A stretch of DNA of 64,000 bases from positions 253,413-317,412 of the IMG/VR virus record IMGVR_UViG_3300014205_000001; one strand, written 5' to 3'. Shown here one piece after another: positions 7,033 through 54,814 of this stretch (positions within the stretch are counted from its first letter, which is position 1; each line of letters starts with the position of its first letter). The DNA is from a virus (lineage: Duplodnaviria > Heunggongvirae > Uroviricota > Caudoviricetes). Below the pieces are notes generated by a model that saw only the letters and a list, made by a program, of their open reading frames with translations, was not told the origin of the DNA and ran no database searches. The translations under genes and the position numbers were made by a program.

Positions 7033-7338
7033 ATGATAATTACTGATAAAAACTTTGAAAATCTTATTGCGAATAACAACGTAGTAATGAAATTAGGTGC
7101 AGTTTGGTGTGGACCTTGCCGCCAATTAGACCCCATCATTAAAAAAATGGAAGCTGAAGAAAACAAATTTATTGTAGGCAGCGTTGATATTGATGAAAAT
7201 TCTGTGATCTCAACTCGTTATGGAATTAGAAATATTCCCACAATTTTATTTTTTAAAGAAGGTCAATTAGTTGACAAAATTGTAGGCAATGTATCTGAGA
7301 TTCAGATACGTGAAAAAATTACAACAGCATTAAGCTAA
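7033..7338 (+). CDS. trx: thioredoxin
   Basis: WCGPC active site (AVWCGPCRQL). About 100 aa with thioredoxin fold spacing. Confidence 0.85.
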   Translation: MIITDKNFENLIANNNVVMKLGAVWCGPCRQLDPIIKKMEAEENKFIVGSVDIDENSVISTRYGIRNIPTILFFKEGQLVDKIVGNVSEIQIREKITTALS

Positions 7339-12361: not shown

Positions 12362-13702
12362 TTATTTCTTAGTATCTTTTATAATTTTATCTGTAGGACT
12401 AACTTGCCAGAATGTATCTTTATTGCTCATTTTTACACTTACATCTAAATCAGCATTCTCTCCCATGTTACCTGAACGAAATACACCTTCAACCATTTTA
12501 CAATCAATTAATCCACCATCGAACATACAATTTTCTAATACAGAATCTTCTAATGCTTGACAGTTACTTAATTTCACATTATCAATATTGGATTCGTAAA
12601 TATTACTTGTATAGACGTGACCATTACTTACGTCGCAATTAATTAAATCGCAATTGAATAAAGTACATTCAGTAATTCTGCAGTTAATAAAATCAACATT
12701 CGATAAATCAACTTTATTCAAGATGCCATCTACAATTTCTAAACGACTAGTATCAGTATTGTAGTTAACACGAATACCTTCAAATTTTTCTACGTTTTTT
12801 ACAACTTCGAAAATTTTACCCTTAAATTTATCCCAGTTCGCACAGATAGTTCTGTAGTCACCTTCTTTATCCATTTCAACTTTAATATTATCAATGTTCG
12901 ATAAAAATTCGTTATAAGATGTGTATTGTTTGAACCAATTAATATTGTCTTCTAAATAAGAAAGTAATTTAATGTTATCTTCCGCGATTAATGGGTCAGT
13001 GATTGCTTTACGCGTTTCTAAGACAAAGTAATCCATTAACGTTAAGATACGATCAGTTTGTTTTTCGTAATTTTCACCTCCAATGTAACGATATTCTAAA
13101 TATCCTTTCCATTTTTTCTGCATATTAATACCGTAGTATTTAGTATCATCAGGTATTGTTAAGGATTCTAATGTATGACGTAAACCAACTTCGCTATCAT
13201 CAAAACCTTCGAATGGCATTATCCATTTAATAGAACGAGCATAAATATTGTTACGGCGATTTGGAAATTTTTCGTACACAAAATCTTCGTTAAAGTTTAG
13301 AATCAATTTTACTAGATTTACATCTAATACTTTCATATCATCAAATGATACATTGACATGGACTGAACAGTGATCATCAGTATAACCATTTTCATTAATC
13401 CAGTCTAACATTTTAATTGTAATGACTCTGGCATCCATCCATGTTAAAGGTCCTGTGACCATTTCTAACATATTAGGGCCACCTGAATAGTCAGGTTCGA
13501 TTTTGAATTTTTTGTCAGTAGGTGTAAAGTTACTATGATATTGGTTGAATCCCCAAATTTCAATTCCTTGAAAATGATTATTTAAAGATTCTAATGTTTT
13601 AATATAGTGATGATTTGAATACATTTCAAACTCAAGACCTACTTTCGCATTAACTAAATCTTTCCAATTACTGATAAAAGTACTATTTAAATTATTAGGC
13701 AT
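12362..13702 (-). CDS. glutamine-synthetase-fold amidoligase-like N-domain + pentapeptide-repeat beta-helix C-domain
   Basis: VGLEFEM and CSVHVNV resemble the GxExE / hHvHv signatures of GCS2/amidoligase enzymes. The C-terminus has clear 5-residue periodicity (INCRI TECTL FNCDL INCDV ...). Confidence 0.45.
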   Translation of the reverse strand: MPNNLNSTFISNWKDLVNAKVGLEFEMYSNHHYIKTLESLNNHFQGIEIWGFNQYHSNFTPTDKKFKIEPDYSGGPNMLEMVTGPLTWMDARVITIKMLDWINENGYTDDHCSVHVNVSFDDMKVLDVNLVKLILNFNEDFVYEKFPNRRNNIYARSIKWIMPFEGFDDSEVGLRHTLESLTIPDDTKYYGINMQKKWKGYLEYRYIGGENYEKQTDRILTLMDYFVLETRKAITDPLIAEDNIKLLSYLEDNINWFKQYTSYNEFLSNIDNIKVEMDKEGDYRTICANWDKFKGKIFEVVKNVEKFEGIRVNYNTDTSRLEIVDGILNKVDLSNVDFINCRITECTLFNCDLINCDVSNGHVYTSNIYESNIDNVKLSNCQALEDSVLENCMFDGGLIDCKMVEGVFRSGNMGENADLDVSVKMSNKDTFWQVSPTDKIIKDTKK

Positions 13703-21307: not shown

Positions 21308-22663
21308 ATGAATAAAGAAGAAATATTTAGTCAGTTCGTATTAGACAGAGATAAAGAACAACTGTCACCAGCTGAAATAAAAATGTTAGACGCCTTATCT
21401 CTCGAAGAAGTTAAGGAATGTTTAGATCAATCCAGTAAACAGAAATATTACAATCAATCCTTAGACTTAGGTCGTAAATTAGCCCTCGTTTGCGTATATG
21501 GTGCGTTTGGTAATAATCACTTTGTAATTTCAACAAAAGAAATTGCGGGTGCAATTACAGCGATGGGTCGTGATACTATTAAATATATGGACACGATCAA
21601 TGAAACATATTGGTACGAATACTGGCATGAAGATACTGAGTTACACGAACACTTAGGTATTAAAACAGAAGACGTGAAAAAATTAGACGCTGCATGGATT
21701 CATCGTGAAACATTATCAGAATATGATGGTGAACCCACACAAGATGAAATTGATGAAGGTACTTATCAACGTAAATTTCCAGTTTCTATTTATATAGATA
21801 CTGACTCATTATTTGTGAGTTTTGATTATGGAATGAAATCCTGTAATTATCAAGGTAAGAAAGAAGATTTTGTATTGAAATGCGCAAAGTTTCGTTTGGA
21901 ACCTTTATTCAAACGTAAATTAGATACGTACGCTAAAAAATATGGTGTACCAAATATTCAAGATTTTGAATTAGAAAATATTAACGAATCCATTTTATTC
22001 GTATCCAAGAAAAAATATATTAAGCATACAGTATGGGAGGACGGTACAGTATTCCCACGTCTACAACAAGTAGTTTCCAAGGGTGTAAATTTAGTTCAAC
22101 GTGGTACTCCTAAATTTGCTAAACAAAAAATCATGGAGATTATCCATTACTTGTTTGATAACAGCGAAACATATAATATCAAGGACTTATTAAAATTCAT
22201 TCGTGATTTAAAGAAAGAATTTGAAATGCAAAATGTGGATGATATATGTCCAAGTTCAAATTTAAATATGTACTTGAGTCAAGGTAAAGTATTAGTGGAT
22301 GGTGTACTTGTGGACAGCCCAGGTATCTTAAACGATAAAACAGATTTAGTATTTGCGAAGGGTACATATTTTACAGTGAAGGCAGCAGGGTTGTATAATT
22401 TTATGTTACATAATAATCCAGAATGGATGAATGATTACGAAATTGTAAAACCTGGAACGAAAATTAAAGTATATCCCACAACACACGAAAAGAATAATAA
22501 ATTTGCGTATCCGATTGGACAATATCCTAAGGAATTTGCACCACCGATTGATTACGATGAATTGTTTGAAAAAACAATTTTGGATGGTGTGAATTATTAT
22601 ATTGAGGCATTGAATTTGCCTAAATTAAATAAACGTTTAAAAGTAGTAATGTCTTTATTTTAA
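21308..22663 (+). CDS. family-B DNA polymerase, C-terminal portion only (motif B, motif C, thumb)
   Basis: KLALVCVYGAFGN ~ T4/RB69 KxxxNSxYG motif B. YIDTDSLFV ~ YGDTDS motif C. KKKYIKH ~ KKRY. No exonuclease or motif A (DxxSLYPS) in or upstream of the ORF. Confidence 0.7.
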   Translation: MNKEEIFSQFVLDRDKEQLSPAEIKMLDALSLEEVKECLDQSSKQKYYNQSLDLGRKLALVCVYGAFGNNHFVISTKEIAGAITAMGRDTIKYMDTINETYWYEYWHEDTELHEHLGIKTEDVKKLDAAWIHRETLSEYDGEPTQDEIDEGTYQRKFPVSIYIDTDSLFVSFDYGMKSCNYQGKKEDFVLKCAKFRLEPLFKRKLDTYAKKYGVPNIQDFELENINESILFVSKKKYIKHTVWEDGTVFPRLQQVVSKGVNLVQRGTPKFAKQKIMEIIHYLFDNSETYNIKDLLKFIRDLKKEFEMQNVDDICPSSNLNMYLSQGKVLVDGVLVDSPGILNDKTDLVFAKGTYFTVKAAGLYNFMLHNNPEWMNDYEIVKPGTKIKVYPTTHEKNNKFAYPIGQYPKEFAPPIDYDELFEKTILDGVNYYIEALNLPKLNKRLKVVMSLF

Positions 22664-22854: not shown

Positions 22855-23985
22855 ATGAGTTTAAACTTTCAATTTCAAGCAACTCTCGACGAATATCTTT
22901 TAGCTCAAATTTATGAAAATGTACCTAAATTTTCAACAACTTATGTATCAATTGAAGTAAAACATCAACAATTTAATGAATTGTTCGAAAAGTACTTTGG
23001 TGAATTTGAAATTTTTGAAGCAACAAGTAGTTTCCATTCCAAAGTTACAAACAATTTAGAACCTTATATTGACAGATTATTAATTAGTAAATCGACGGCC
23101 GAAAATCCGTCGATTGCAGTTAAGTACAGTGTCACAAATATTAATGACGAATCAGATACTACAAAAGATTTTGATTACGAACAGTATGGTATTTATTCTG
23201 CAACAAATTTTAGTTTTTATTATCCGTATTCGAAACAAAGTTACGTTAATAAATTTATCAACGAACTGAAAACATTAATTCAAGACGAACGTATTACAAA
23301 TCGTTTCTTTACAATTGGTGTAGGTAATGGTGGATTTAAACTAGTAGCAGAAAAAGTTATGTCAATGCAGGATTTAGATATTAAAATGCATTATGGCAAA
23401 AAATTCGTCCCTGTATTAAATGAAATGATTGATAATTTAAAAACTAAATTTCACGGTTTATTTTTATTATATGGCGAACCTGGTACAGGTAAAACAACAT
23501 TGATTCGTTATTTGATTAATATCATGTGTAACGATAAAACTATTTTATACGTTCCGGCGTACATGGTAGAACAATTAGCCAATCCTGAATTTATTTCATT
23601 TTTACAATCACAAAAAGAAAGTATAATTATTTTAGAAGATGCAGAATTTGCACTTCAAGCACGAAGTGATGAATTTGGTCAACAAGCAGTTTCAAATTTA
23701 TTGAATATAACAAACGGTTTATTAAATGATGCAACGAAGATGCAAGTAATTGCGACTTTTAATATGGATAAGAAAAATATTGATAAAGCATTATTACGTC
23801 CAGGTAGATTATTAGGTGATTGTAAATTTGATAAATTGAACGTTGAAGATTCAAAAGCGTTAGCAGATTTTTTGAAAAAAGATATGGAAATTACAGTACC
23901 GATGACCGTTGCTGAAATTTATAATGGTAAAACACTTAACCGTAAAGGTACGAAGAAACGTATAGGAATTAAAGATGATGAATAA
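22855..23985 (+). CDS. classical AAA+ ATPase
   Basis: Walker A GEPGTGKTT, Walker B IIILEDAE, sensor ATFN, SRH-type ALLRPGR arginine finger. Confidence 0.7.
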   Translation: MSLNFQFQATLDEYLLAQIYENVPKFSTTYVSIEVKHQQFNELFEKYFGEFEIFEATSSFHSKVTNNLEPYIDRLLISKSTAENPSIAVKYSVTNINDESDTTKDFDYEQYGIYSATNFSFYYPYSKQSYVNKFINELKTLIQDERITNRFFTIGVGNGGFKLVAEKVMSMQDLDIKMHYGKKFVPVLNEMIDNLKTKFHGLFLLYGEPGTGKTTLIRYLINIMCNDKTILYVPAYMVEQLANPEFISFLQSQKESIIILEDAEFALQARSDEFGQQAVSNLLNITNGLLNDATKMQVIATFNMDKKNIDKALLRPGRLLGDCKFDKLNVEDSKALADFLKKDMEITVPMTVAEIYNGKTLNRKGTKKRIGIKDDE

Positions 23986-28951: not shown

Positions 28952-29911
28952 ATGAAAAAATCAATCTATCTTATACTCTTCGTACTTATAAGTACTATGA
29001 GTTTTTCACAAACGTTTGTTTCAGTTGAAGGAAGTAAATATCAACTGTTAACAGCAACTAATCCAAGTGCACACGATACAATTATCACTGAAACATCCAA
29101 TTCCTATATTACATTCAGTGTAACTTTACCGGCAAATACTCAATATTCAATAAGTATTGGTGCTAATCTTATCCGAACAAAAACTTCAACAGGTGCTTCA
29201 AATGATACTATTAAAATCAAAGCCAAACCTGAATTAAGTTATTCATGGAATGTTAGTAACAATTTCCATTATCGAATTTACACAAGTAACGTGACAATCG
29301 GTCATTTTAGGGTGAAAAATAAAATAAATTTTTTAAATGTAAATTCCGGAATTTCTGGCAATACTATAAATTTCACACTTGATACTTTAAAAGGTTTGAA
29401 TTATCATATTAACAATTCAATATCGAAAAGTATTTATGAATATTCTTTTTCACAAACATCAACTCCGCCATTAAATGCTACGAATTTATCTACTCTTGTT
29501 GTTGGTCCTTTATCCATGCCAATTACTTCAAGCGGTACATATTATTTACATATTCGTGGTTACAGTTATTATCTTGATCCGAATGAAACTAATTTTGGTT
29601 TAACATTTACAGGTTGGATAACATATTCAGTAGCTGCAACCTATACACAAAGCACAGTTGGAATTTCTGAAAACACATTAAGTAATTTTAAGGTATATCC
29701 AAATCCAGCTAAGGACTTTATTACAGTGCAATACACATCAGCCAATAACATTGAAAATGTGTCACTATATAATATTGCCGGTCAGGAAATGACAACTCAG
29801 GCAGTCGAATCTATGGGTGATAACAAGGTAACCTTTAATTTGGAATCCTATCCACAAGGTATCTACTTTGCAAGGATTGGTTCAAGTACTTATAAATTCA
29901 TCAAACAATAA
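28952..29911 (+). CDS. secreted protein with type IX secretion system C-terminal sorting domain
   Basis: N-terminal signal peptide MKKSIYLILFVLISTMSFSQ. C-terminal ~80 aa (KVYPNPAKDFITVQ ... NIAGQEMTT ... GIYFARIG) match the Por_Secre_tail CTD pattern of Bacteroidetes. Confidence 0.75.
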   Translation: MKKSIYLILFVLISTMSFSQTFVSVEGSKYQLLTATNPSAHDTIITETSNSYITFSVTLPANTQYSISIGANLIRTKTSTGASNDTIKIKAKPELSYSWNVSNNFHYRIYTSNVTIGHFRVKNKINFLNVNSGISGNTINFTLDTLKGLNYHINNSISKSIYEYSFSQTSTPPLNATNLSTLVVGPLSMPITSSGTYYLHIRGYSYYLDPNETNFGLTFTGWITYSVAATYTQSTVGISENTLSNFKVYPNPAKDFITVQYTSANNIENVSLYNIAGQEMTTQAVESMGDNKVTFNLESYPQGIYFARIGSSTYKFIKQ

Positions 29912-49250: not shown

Positions 49251-49330
49251 GGAAGGTAGCGTACAAGGTGTACATCCCGCCTTGAAAGCGGGCGCGGTCT
49301 AACGACAGGGTTCGATTCCTATATCTTCCG
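49251..49330 (+). tRNA. atypical tRNA-like element (anticodon loop CTTGAAA gives UGA/Ser-type; weak T-stem)
   Basis: 7-bp acceptor GGAAGGT/ATCTTCC, D-arm GTAC/GTAC, perfect anticodon arm CCCGC-CTTGAAA-GCGGG, T-loop GTTCGATTC. Only 3 T-stem pairs. Confidence 0.35.
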
Positions 49331-49335
49331 CATTT

Positions 49336-49410
49336 GGTCCTTTAGTTTAATGGACAGAGCATGGGGATTCTACCCCCAGAGTGAGGGTTCGATTCCTTCA
49401 AGGACTACCA
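49336..49410 (+). tRNA. tRNA-Arg (anticodon TCT), CCA encoded
   Basis: Acceptor GGTCCTT/AAGGACT, anticodon arm TGGGG-ATTCTAC-CCCCA, T-arm GAGGG-TTCGATT-CCTTC, ends ACCA. Confidence 0.85.
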
Positions 49411-49507
49411 AATAAATAAGGAAGATCGACTCATCAGGCGATGGGAGTAGTTTGCTAAACTATCTGTGCATGAATTTGCACACGGGTCGGGACCGTGGTT
49501 TTCCTCT

Positions 49508-49582
49508 GCCTCTGTAGCTCAATTGGATTAGAGCACTCGCCTACGAAGCGAGAGGTTGCGCGTTCGAATCGCGTCAGAGGTA
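49508..49582 (+). tRNA. tRNA-Arg (anticodon ACG)
   Basis: Acceptor GCCTCTG/CAGAGGT, D-arm GCTC..GAGC, anticodon arm CTCGC-CTACGAA-GCGAG (identical loop to E. coli Arg-ACG), T-arm GCGCG-TTCGAAT-CGCGT. Confidence 0.85.
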
Positions 49583-49662
49583 CAGGAATATAATATGAGT
49601 TCGAGTCTCAGCAACGGAGATAGCTACCGTTAGAAGCATTTATGGTGATGCAGTTCCACTAT

Positions 49663-49735
49663 GCCTTCATAGTTCAATGGATTAGAATGTCGCGCTTCGG
49701 ACGCGATGATGTGGGTTCGAATCCTACTGAGGGTA
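49663..49735 (+). tRNA. tRNA-Arg (anticodon TCG)
   Basis: Acceptor GCCTTCA/TGAGGGT, anticodon arm TCGCG-CTTCGGA-CGCGA, T-arm GTGGG-TTCGAAT-CCTAC. Confidence 0.8.
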
Positions 49736-49745
49736 CTTTAAATTA

Positions 49746-51232
49746 TTATGAAATTGCAGTAGGGAAATAAGTAACATTAATAATAATTGTTATTGAAGCA
49801 CTATTCCAAGCAGTTACTGCTCCCACATACAATGTAGATGTACCTGTAGAATATCTTGCCGATAACGCACCTTCAACTGCTGAAACATTTGCATTCCCTG
49901 CTACAGCAATTGTTGCTAAATGTTCTGTTCCTCCATTTGTGGAACCTAATTTAATTCCACCTGTAACTACGTTAGCAGTATTATTTCTAATTACTACTGA
50001 ATCGAAATTATGATTTGGCGAAAAAGTAAATGATGTTGCAGCTGTAATACCTTTACATATTAATACTTCTTTTTGTCCTGTTAAAATTCTCATAATACCT
50101 CTTAATAAGGTTACACTTCCAGAATATAAATTATTAATATTAGTATTAACCATTGCTAAAATAGTATTTCCTAAGGTTGTACATGTAAAATTAATAGAAT
50201 TAGGAAAATTACAAGAAATAATAGTATATGATTGCTGAGGTTGTGTTACAGTTGTATCAGTAAAAACAAATTGATTAATAGTCGTATTAGTTAAACGGAA
50301 AGAATTATTATCCTTTGCATCACTTCTATTAATTGTTAAATATTGTAATTCAGATGAAGTTACAGCTACCTGTGGTGAATAAAATGTATATTGTTGTCCT
50401 GAAGTTACAGTACTGATATTACCAGTATCAGCAAAAATTGAACCTGTACCGGCAATACGAAATGCAATTACGCCTGCTGCGGCAATATTTCCACAGTTTC
50501 CTGATACAGAAATAATATTAACAGTATTATATGCATGTGCAATATTTGTACGCGTTGTTAAATTTCCTACAGTATTAACGTTTGTTATACTAATTGTTCC
50601 ACCTGTTTCAGTTTGGAATAATTCTTCATCGTAATTTCCACTTCTACCTCTAGTTACAGTAACTGCACCCACACTACAATTAATTGCATTACCTGTTATT
50701 ACAACTTCACCTGCTAAACTTCCTGTATTGCTAGGGTCATTAATAGAACAATTTATATTTCCAATTGATGCTGATGTAATATTTAAACGTACTGAACCTG
50801 ACATTTGAGTTCCAGTAACAGTTCCTGTATATTGATTATCAATAGTACCTATTGTAACATGTTTCAATGTACAAGTATAACTAATTTGATCAATTAAATA
50901 ACCGTCACCATCATATATGTAATTTGTATAACCTACACTGTAACCATTTCCTATTGAATTAGTACCAATAATGTTTCCTAAAACTGATTCTTGGCTATTT
51001 TTACCTATAATTTGAATGTTATGATTAAAATTAGATGTAAGTATCAAATTACCTGTATTTGCAGCTGTAGTTTCAGCAACATAAATAGTAACAGTTCCCC
51101 CCCATTTAATTGTTGCATTGTATTTGCACGATTATATGCAGCTTGGAAAGTCGAAAAAATGTTTTGACTTGGACCACCGTTTTTAGCAGCTACAAAGGGG
51201 TCTTGAATATAGACAGAATTAGTTGTTATCAT
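49746..51232 (-). pseudogene. tail-fibre-like beta-helix protein interrupted by frameshift at a G7 homopolymer (two ORFs 51232-51044 and 51047-49746)
   Basis: Upstream ORF ends in low-complexity out-of-frame text after GGGGGGG (plus-strand C7 at 51097-51103). Reading with 8 G joins ..TMQQLNGGG-TVTIYVAETTAANTGNL-ILTSNFNHN.. in one ~495-aa Thr/Asn/Gly-rich ORF. Confidence 0.55.
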
Positions 51233-51245
51233 AATGATTTATATA

Positions 51246-51518
51246 TTAATTTACATTTCCTAAATCACGTGATTTAAGAGGTTGTACGACTGATGTATCT
51301 ATTTTTTCGTTCTTAATCGATTTGGGTTCTGCTAAAGGTTGTTCATACAAATTAGGAAATTTTGCAGGTTCAATTGGTGCTTGACGATCTTCTTTATTGA
51401 CATTATCCTTTTCAGGGTCAATTTTATTTTCGTTCTTTACAATATTATCGTAAAGATTTTTTAAAGATGATGAATCACCTTTTTTGTTAAAGTCGGAGTA
51501 TAAGTTATCGATTGACAT
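51246..51518 (-). CDS. hypothetical protein
   Basis: 90-aa ORF. Confidence 0.4.
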   Translation of the reverse strand: MSIDNLYSDFNKKGDSSSLKNLYDNIVKNENKIDPEKDNVNKEDRQAPIEPAKFPNLYEQPLAEPKSIKNEKIDTSVVQPLKSRDLGNVN

Positions 51519-52353
51519 AATGTTTAAAGTTTAATATTTTTAAAGGGGCAATTGCAAGTTGTGATGTAGGTACATTACTAATAATACTTTTACGTAAAGC
51601 AGCATTCAAGATAATAACCATTTTTTTATCTTTCAACCATTCTAAGTCTTTTTTATTTTTAATAACACGACATAAAAAATTGTTGTAATAGATTTTTATA
51701 AAATCATTTGTCCAATGACATTTTAAATTTAATATTTTATTAGGGTCAACAAACCAACCGTGACCTACAGCACCTAAATTATAATGATTATCACCATTAC
51801 TGCCTAAGTGAATATTTGTTTCAATTCTGTTTTTGTATTTACCTTTTTCGTCAGTATACGCTTCTAATACATCAATTTCAGGTGGCCATGAATTAGAACT
51901 TGAAATCCATACGGCGGGCCATAAACCAACACCTAAGGGCAATTTAATATTCCATTCAAAAATACCATGACCATAATCATAATATGAAGTACATAATCCA
52001 ACACCGTGGGGAATTGTGATGGGTTCTTGATTTTCTAATAAAGTTTTACCATCTTTATCCATGTATGTTGTTACAGTTTTTGGATTATCTGTAATTGATA
52101 AATTTAAACCATCACGTAAATATACTCCTTTCGGATCGTACCATTGTTGTAAATCGTTTGGATGATAATCTCCCCATGCTTGGGACTTACGATAAAATTC
52201 ATCTAATTCAATTTCTGTCATGGTTGTAAAATCTTCAAAATTAGTTTCTACAAAAGAATCTGGAATTGAAAAAATGCCTTGTTTTTGACGAAAAACATGG
52301 TATAAAATCCAAATTTTGATGTTAATTAATTTATTAATTACTTTATCCTTCAT
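51505..52353 (-). CDS. glycoside hydrolase family 16 (beta-glucanase/laminarinase-like)
   Basis: GLWPAVWI and catalytic EIDVLE (ExDxxE) in canonical GH16 order and spacing. Confidence 0.7.
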   Translation of the reverse strand: MKDKVINKLINIKIWILYHVFRQKQGIFSIPDSFVETNFEDFTTMTEIELDEFYRKSQAWGDYHPNDLQQWYDPKGVYLRDGLNLSITDNPKTVTTYMDKDGKTLLENQEPITIPHGVGLCTSYYDYGHGIFEWNIKLPLGVGLWPAVWISSSNSWPPEIDVLEAYTDEKGKYKNRIETNIHLGSNGDNHYNLGAVGHGWFVDPNKILNLKCHWTNDFIKIYYNNFLCRVIKNKKDLEWLKDKKMVIILNAALRKSIISNVPTSQLAIAPLKILNFKHYVNR

Positions 52354-53892: not shown

Positions 53893-53904
53893 CATATAAT
53901 TGTT
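53893..53904 (+). promoter_or_regulatory. conserved motif CATATAATTGTT (copy 5) upstream of sigma factor gene
   Basis: Exact 12-mer 17 nt before ATG 53921. Confidence 0.5.
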
Positions 53905-53920
53905 ATGTAACACATACAAA

Positions 53921-54814
53921 ATGGCAGCAAAAGGGTTAATAATAGGTGACGTTATCATAGCTTTGGTGAATGATAAAAAGAATTACGGCAGATATTTAAA
54001 TGAAGTTGCAAAATTTGGTTTATTAACAATTGACGAAGAAGTCGAATATTTTCAAAAATTTCGCGCCGGTGAAACTAAGTATTACAATAAAATTGCAGAA
54101 CGCAATTTACGATTTGTAATATCTGTTGCCAAAAAATTTCAGAATGTTGTAGCGTTTACAACTGCATTAACATTAGAAGACTTAATCAGTGAAGGTAATT
54201 TAGGACTATGTGAAGCAATTCATAGATACGATGAAACTCGTGGGTTTAAATTCATTTCTTTTGCAGTACATTATATTCGTTCATATATCAATACTGCTAT
54301 TTATCGACATTTACGAACCATTAGAATGCCGCAAAATCGTCAAGTTGTATTATATAAGTTGACAAAATTAGAAAACGAATTACAACAAGAATATCACATT
54401 GATGAAATTCCTACTGAATTATTACAACAATACGCAGTTGAAAAAAATATAGAATCAGCTTCCATGATTTCGGATATTAAAAAATTTACTAATTCAGGCA
54501 CTAGTTTAGATGCATCAAATAGTAATGAAATATGTTTGAAAGACATGATTGAGGATGTTTCAATTGAAGGACCTTTTAGCACTTTATTAAATAAAGAAAA
54601 AGCTGATTATCTGAAAAGTATTTTAGATAAAATACCTGAACGCGTTGCTGAATATATTACATTGCACTACGGTTTAAATAATCAACCTGCATTAGAAATA
54701 AAAGAAATTGCGAAAATTCATAACGTAGGCAACGAAGTTGTTCGTTTTCAAATTAGGAGATGGACTGCAAAAATGTATCGTCCAAATGTAGAAGATTATA
54801 AACAATACAACTAA
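53921..54814 (+). CDS. sigma-70 family RNA polymerase sigma factor (regions 1.2, 2, 3, 4)
   Basis: KFGLLTIDEEVEYFQKFRAGE (1.2). RNLRFVISVAKKF (2.1). DLISEGNLGLCEAIHRYDETRGFKFISFAVHYIRSYI (2.2-2.4). EYITLHYGLNNQPALEIKEIAKIHNVGNEVVRFQIRR (region 4 HTH). Confidence 0.85.
   Translation: MAAKGLIIGDVIIALVNDKKNYGRYLNEVAKFGLLTIDEEVEYFQKFRAGETKYYNKIAERNLRFVISVAKKFQNVVAFTTALTLEDLISEGNLGLCEAIHRYDETRGFKFISFAVHYIRSYINTAIYRHLRTIRMPQNRQVVLYKLTKLENELQQEYHIDEIPTELLQQYAVEKNIESASMISDIKKFTNSGTSLDASNSNEICLKDMIEDVSIEGPFSTLLNKEKADYLKSILDKIPERVAEYITLHYGLNNQPALEIKEIAKIHNVGNEVVRFQIRRWTAKMYRPNVEDYKQYN

Follow-up and report, generated by a model that had tools for sequence, protein, structure and literature searches.

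A G7 tract interrupts a β-helix gene of a huge phage: a candidate slippage-generated OFF allele

Two reading frames that meet at a run of seven G

The locus described here lies in a 64-kb window, by which we mean the whole stretch of DNA that was analyzed, corresponding to positions 81658-145657 of the 390,959-bp contig ena:ERZ27247358:k141_1155954 (30% GC). Its minus strand carries an open reading frame (ORF) of 62 aa with an ATG start (51232-51044), followed by an ORF of 433 aa (51047-49746) for which the ORF finder chose TTG as the start. The two are in different frames, the downstream one being −1 relative to the upstream one, and both frames overlap over 51131-51044, an interval that contains a run of seven G (C7 on the plus strand, 51097-51103; 132754-132760 in k141_1155954). 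A sequence-only reading of this DNA had described the two ORFs and had named the run as the bridge between them, proposing phase variation, a programmed slip or a sequencing error without preferring any of the three. Both ORFs are present as it described them, and the run does lie at the frame change.

In the upstream ORF, the run takes up codons 44 and 45 (GGG GGG) and extends one base into codon 46; the upstream (zero) frame here reads AAT GGG GGG GAA. Codons 1-43 (MITTN...MQQLN, 51104-51232, minus strand) form the native 5′ part, which encodes an N-terminal strand and a cap helix. Past the run, the zero frame decays, as the sequence-only reading had noted: it yields ELLLFMLLKLQLQIQVI and then stops at a TGA (51044-51096, minus strand). 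This tail of the 62-aa product has no homology, whereas the −1 frame of the same bases matches a protein family and is conserved coding sequence. The −1 frame is open from 51131, but homology starts only at the ACT codon at 51095-51093, from where the 3′ part (TVTIYVAETTAANTGNLILT..., 49746-51095, minus strand) runs to the stop codon and encodes the β-helix body.

Changing the length of the run in silico restores a single reading frame. With one G inserted (G8), the two parts become one ORF of 495 aa that reads ..QQLNGGGTVTIYVAETTAANTGNLILTSNFNHN.. across the site, and with two G fewer (G5) they become one ORF of 494 aa; both proteins are collinear with their homologues, while G7 gives 62 aa. 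The peptides at the site differ accordingly, ..QQLNGGGTVTIYVAETTAANTGNLILTSNFNHNIQIIGK in the fused (G8) reading and ..GGELLLFMLLK in the nonsense tail. The repeat is thus in frame and 5′-proximal, at codons 44-46 of a gene of ~495 codons.

Directly upstream, on the same strand, are a putative 90-aa ORF without a Pfam or PHROG match (51246-51518) and, overlapping it, a GH16 glycoside hydrolase gene (51505-52353; PF00722, E 1.6e-11), whose product has a hydrophobic N-terminus. The GH16 gene may be co-transcribed with the β-helix gene, and the two proteins might constitute a glycan-degrading pair. Downstream and convergent with the β-helix gene are four tRNA genes on the plus strand (49251-49736), for Ser(TGA), Arg(TCT), Arg(ACG) and Arg(TCG), which places three different Arg isoacceptors next to each other. 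A sigma-70-like factor with regions 1.2 and 2 is encoded on the plus strand at 53900-54814.

A single ancestral gene in a family of β-helix proteins

One relative of the G8 reading, P0002, is a protein of 475 aa encoded on a 67.5-kb phage contig. In BLASTP, residues 9-195 of the G8 reading align with it across the tract, with 34% identity and an E-value of 7e-19. Seven further loci, six from metagenomes (L006-L011) and P0002's own locus (L001), contain a continuous ORF with the same N-terminal module, which can be written as RYVYLVQD.SDA.RMGG...N.YTTFQ.AYNAA..LQ..LGG[TS]N.V.I.VG..TAA.VGNL.LT.N.N.

To keep the comparison of the two frames non-circular, we used a profile (A3) built from four relatives, with the window sequence left out. 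With this profile, the upstream frame gives a match at positions 64-104 (E 4.7e-9) and the downstream frame one at positions 105-205 (E 3.4e-11), so that the two matches abut exactly at the G run. The sequence-only reading had held that an eighth G would join the protein seamlessly; the 495-aa ORF, the homologues and the profile of the relatives all join the frames at this point and bear this out.

Searched exhaustively with a profile, a set of 1.84 billion representative proteins yielded a family of ~147 members, 130 of them at E ≤1e-10. In all ~147 other family representatives the match begins before the site, and only the window's own ORF (P0001/P0004) begins its match at profile position 65. 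In the seven relatives examined at the DNA level, the Gly-Gly pair is encoded by GGA GGA, GGT GGT or GGC GGA, or is absent, and a G run at the site is seen in none of them. At the protein level, the glycine loop contains GG in 89 of 148 family members and GGG in one. By our own count, the loops produced by G5, G8 and G11 are, relative to the commonest spacing between AYN and NLxLT, two residues short, one residue short and equal, respectively; since the loop is not of constant length across the family, any of the three could plausibly be an ON state.

These comparisons indicate that a single gene, for a protein of ~495 aa, underlies both ORFs and is broken at the tract. The split is derived and specific to this genome, and the ancestral state is a single ORF, because the ~147 relatives are unsplit and the seven with DNA have no G run. 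As both halves are still open and both still match the family, the break is recent or reversible. We also considered an alternative genetic code, given that the relatives include Lak-like huge phages, and rejected it: homology tracks the −1 frame and not a read-through of the zero frame.

The family itself, as delineated in our alignments (A2, A3, A5), comprises ~147 clusters at 50% identity, with a conserved N-terminal module followed by a β-helix. In proteins of 450-600 aa the module lies at the N-terminus, and in those of 800-1400 aa it is internal. Pfam and PHROGs offer no model for the family, and neither gave a significant match to the fused protein or to P0002; a PDB sequence search with the family profile was likewise without a match. 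Single or few members carry K1-lyase_C, tail-fiber or baseplate segments, and the family is otherwise almost unannotated. Megablast and tblastn searches of GenBank phages found no match to the region or to the fused protein, IMG/VR contained nothing with the protein, the alignment or the tract-flanking DNA pattern at any tract length, and GTDB genomes had no family match. By these searches, the family would be confined to metagenomes.

We modeled the G8 form as a monomer with AlphaFold. An alignment of only two sequences gave a pLDDT of just 40, whereas an alignment of 90 sequences gave a mean pLDDT of 77 and a pTM of 0.77, with pLDDT >90 for most of residues 1-200 and 96-98 across the junction. 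In the model, a strand (residues 6-9) and two helices (12-17 and 20-23) precede a cap helix (29-42, pLDDT 96-98), which is followed by the glycine loop (44-46) and by a strand (48-52) that leads into a long stack of β-strands. The tract therefore separates the coding sequence of the cap helix, upstream, from that of the first coil, downstream. The model agrees with the β-helix body that the sequence-only reading had proposed, and the gene product is predicted to be a right-handed β-helix with a putative tailspike- or depolymerase-like architecture.

Calling the gene tail-fiber-like, as the same reading did, is reasonable as a description of the fold, and the gene for P0002 lies two genes after a tail-fiber gene (phrog_8745) and upstream of a holin gene. 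The fold is, however, a generic β-helix, and the neighbors of the gene in the window (the GH16 gene, the 90-aa ORF, the sigma-70-like factor and the four tRNAs) include no recognizable tail module. While its architecture is of the kind seen in the β-helix tailspikes and depolymerases of P22, Sf6, CBA120 and Acinetobacter and Klebsiella phages, the protein has no sequence-level membership in these groups, and its fold matches bacterial adhesins and polysaccharide lyases as well as it matches phage tailspikes and depolymerases. Further, unlike phage tailspikes and depolymerases, it has no recognizable N-terminal virion-anchor domain, the conserved module beginning at residue 6.

Origin of the frame break

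The sequence-only reading had considered a homopolymer of this length rare in an AT-rich genome. This holds for the window, where G7 is the sole G/C homopolymer of at least six bases. The ~18 kb of flanking contig that we examined contain no G/C run of at least five, and there is no second G/C tract across the ~82 kb of genome formed by window and flanks. GGGGG matches at 6 positions in the window, three of which are within the G7 run, against 11.4 expected, so that G5 is depleted. In the window's long ORFs, GGG is the glycine codon used least (4.4%), and GGG-GGG encodes 0 of the 52 Gly-Gly pairs. The rarity is nevertheless within reach of chance: when the window was shuffled 100 times with dinucleotide counts preserved, 17 of the shuffled sequences had one or more G7/C7 runs (mean 0.21), and this mean, scaled to the 391-kb genome, gives an expectation of ~1.3. 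The run is conspicuous, but by composition alone it is therefore not statistically exceptional; what is non-random is that it coincides precisely with the point where a conserved gene changes frame. Asking which homopolymers join ORFs upon an indel of ±1 was not discriminating, since runs near gene ends join neighboring genes trivially.

The break is best explained, in our view and with a confidence somewhat above even, by a real OFF allele generated by slippage, which makes the tract a candidate contingency locus. The allele would have arisen from an in-frame G8 state by deletion of one base within the G tract at codons 44-46, most likely through slipped-strand mispairing during replication of the phage DNA. 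From the G7 allele, a peptide of 62 aa (44 native and 18 nonsense residues) would be translated, and the full-length protein would not be made, save through rare slippage, so that the gene would be OFF in the prevailing genotype. If the tract gained a G, possibly at the rate of a mutational hot spot, the two halves would be in frame again, and the tract is in this respect a candidate for a reversible switch of the contingency type.

Three alternatives have to be weighed against a slippage-generated OFF allele. One is an error in sequencing or consensus calling: the true genome would have G8 (or G5 or G11), the gene would be intact and the tract biologically inert. Homopolymers concentrate indel errors, and the G8 reading is a perfect, conserved and confidently folded protein, as would be expected if it were the true one. 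Yet the exact 62-aa product, and with it G7, is found on three contigs, the ENA contig of 390,959 bp, a JGI/IMG contig of 391,061 bp and a Logan contig of 45.5 kb (SRR6484325), which makes an artefact of one assembler unlikely. The Logan and ENA contigs are 100% identical over the 15.5 kb of DNA compared; this stretch of the Logan contig ends 10 bases short of the gene, and G7 is read from the record of the exact product in both the Logan and the JGI assembly. The three contigs are probably assemblies of one sample and not independent replication, and they may even share the same reads.

The contig name (k141_) presumably denotes a MEGAHIT short-read assembly, and a run of seven bases is normally called correctly in a short-read consensus. 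In addition, ORFs of 1312 and 1353 aa run through without interruption in a window that contains 24 A/T runs of 7-8 bases, and the assembly thus gives no indication of systematic homopolymer error. Sequencing error, one of the explanations offered in the sequence-only reading, thus loses ground, and we regard it as rather unlikely.

A programmed slip, also offered there, would keep G7 as the template and produce the full-length protein by recoding, through either −1 ribosomal frameshifting or a G added by the polymerase, with a short and a long product as the outcome. Recoding is common in phage tail genes, the shift needed here is −1, the usual direction in programmed frameshifts of phages, and a tRNA-Gly in the P-site on GGG (51100-51098) could re-pair perfectly with GGG at 51101-51099. 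The intactness of both halves would also be accounted for. The site itself, however, is a poor one. Its zero-frame heptamer, T GGG GGG, is not of the form X XXY YYZ, and G-rich A-site codons make poor slippery sites; transcriptional slippage, for its part, is efficient mainly on A/T runs of ~9 or longer. We found no significant structure that could act as a stimulator: the 107 nt downstream fold with a z-score of −1.09, a stability that 29 of 200 shuffles reached, the z-score is −0.61 when upstream context is included, and there is no Rfam match.

The comparison with relatives points the same way. The split arrangement is absent from all ~147, those with DNA have no G run, and the 62-aa product has neither a conserved C-terminus nor an evident role. 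In the lambda G/GT tail assembly chaperone, which is made by a programmed −1 shift, two overlapping frames with a −1 relationship likewise occur in a gene of structural type; in contrast to G/GT, the window gene lacks a canonical heptamer and a stimulator, its split is not conserved and its ancestor is a single ORF. Taken as an account of this locus, recoding is quite improbable.

Finally, it is extremely improbable that the ORFs are two genuine genes, a 62-aa peptide and a 433-aa protein translated from TTG 51047, for instance by termination-reinitiation, as annotated by the ORF finder and public gene callers and as the two-base overlap of the TTG with the upstream TGA (TTGA) might suggest, for this TTG is a leucine codon within the conserved strand motif GNL(I/T)LT, no family member starts there, the stretch of the −1 frame between it and the tract is conserved and coding, and the 433-aa product would miss the conserved cap helix and first strand.

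Known homopolymer switches, host and genome

A slippage-generated OFF allele would have parallels in other phages. The sequence-only reading had referred to homopolymer tracts in receptor-binding genes as classic slipped-strand switches, and precedent for slippage of this kind exists (PMC12633550, PMC11959909). Campylobacter phages of the genus Fletchervirus carry tracts of 7-11 G in receptor-binding proteins (Sorensen et al. 2021, Cell Rep 35:109214, as summarized in PMC12633550 and PMC11959909). In T2 and T4, reversion at mononucleotide repeats of at least six bases is 1,000 to 10,000 times faster than at point mutations, and ~3e-4 of reads show indels at these repeats (PMC12633550, PMC11959909); in tail-fiber genes of coliphages, such repeats are under-represented (PMC12633550).

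The window gene resembles the Fletchervirus tracts in having a G run within the frame of a phage gene of surface or receptor-binding type, where a change of ±1 base toggles the full-length protein, in the AT-rich genome from which the tract stands out, and in a length of seven, within the range of 7-11. For Fletchervirus, heterogeneity in tract length and its phenotypic effects are reported to have been shown, whereas the window gene is represented by one length only. The phages differ as well, the one studied here being a huge phage with a probable Bacteroidota host, a different protein family and one tract in ~82 kb.

With the contingency loci of T2, T4 and other phages (Gomez, Barrick and Waters, bioRxiv 2025, PMC12633550) the locus shares a mononucleotide repeat of at least six bases within an ORF, a large phage with its own family-B DNA polymerase, and the property that an indel of ±1 inactivates the gene while the same repeat allows reversion. 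Those loci are, however, mostly runs of A with minority variants (~3e-4 of reads) on an ON background, whereas in the window phage OFF is the consensus. PolyG switches in phage surface genes being already known, what is new here would at best be the phage clade and the protein family of a candidate.

A separate question is whether the tract evolved as an adaptive switch or is simply a chance hot spot in a gene that the phage can do without; we consider an adaptive origin possible but less likely than not. In its full form, the proposal would be that a 391-kb huge phage, probably infecting Bacteroidota, uses a reversible ON/OFF switch to bet-hedge the display of an accessory β-helix protein, from a family not described before, for receptor binding or depolymerization; we put this forward only tentatively. 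G7 arises by chance ~0.2 times per window, no second G/C tract exists in ~82 kb, unlike in Fletchervirus phages, and seven G are at the short end of known phase-variable tracts. Only G7 was found, with no ON variant or variant cluster among the homologues, and the full-length products of G5, G8 and G11 are absent from a collection of 15 billion proteins, in which probably one sample carries this phage. The three assemblies, probably being of one sample, do not show persistence across populations.

A G7 run also occurs in P0002's phage (33% GC), in its tail-fiber gene (phrog_8745; L001, 7014-8747). It is in frame (7131-7137), 117 nt into the gene, and has two G5 runs within 60 nt. The run is unchanged in a 99.9%-identical contig from a different sample (L003), so such tracts are not necessarily unstable at the consensus level.

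If the tract in the window varies in length, it would represent a contingency locus in an environmental, uncultivated huge phage, in a surface-type protein and with the OFF allele dominant, and would lend weight to the recent claim that homopolymer switches serve phages generally as a means of bet-hedging; tract length could then serve as a marker for host-range or depolymerase switching in metagenomic time series. A true switch would add a huge-phage clade to the Campylobacter and T-even phages in which contingency loci are known, with the OFF state caught as the majority genotype in nature. If the tract is invariant, the public gene calls of 62 and 433 aa should still be combined into a single gene that carries a frameshift flag. 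Independently of this outcome, the analysis delineates a β-helix family of ~147 clusters with a conserved N-terminal module.

The window encodes both subunits of ribonucleotide reductase, an NAD-dependent ligase, a UvsW-type helicase, a fragment of a family-B polymerase, a sigma factor and tRNAs. Its nearest protein relatives are in uncultured huge phages of 462-735 kb (LR745206, LR7565xx), and more distant ones are in phages of Tenacibaculum, Flavobacterium and Chryseobacterium and in Prevotella Lak phages. On the plus strand of the window, at 28952-29911, a protein of 319 aa ends in Por_Secre_tail, the C-terminal sorting domain of type IX secretion (E 1.3e-12), which points to its export by the host secretion system during infection. 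Because of this sorting domain and of the phage relatives, we infer that the host is likely a member of the Bacteroidota.

About 5.5 kb to the left of the window (L014, 4526-5095), a homologue of translation initiation factor IF3 (IF3_N and IF3_C) is encoded near an aminotransferase, a Rieske protein, a thioredoxin and a 2OG-Fe(II) oxygenase; IF3 and its neighboring enzymes are typical of the host-takeover cargo of huge phages. The family-B DNA polymerase ORF (21308-22663, plus strand) is 451 aa long and covers positions 138-357 of the 453 in the Pfam profile. The ORF that follows it (22855-23985) encodes an AAA ATPase and not the remainder of the polymerase, which may be split or divergent. 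On the minus strand at 12362-13702, the window further encodes a pentapeptide-repeat protein of 446 aa.
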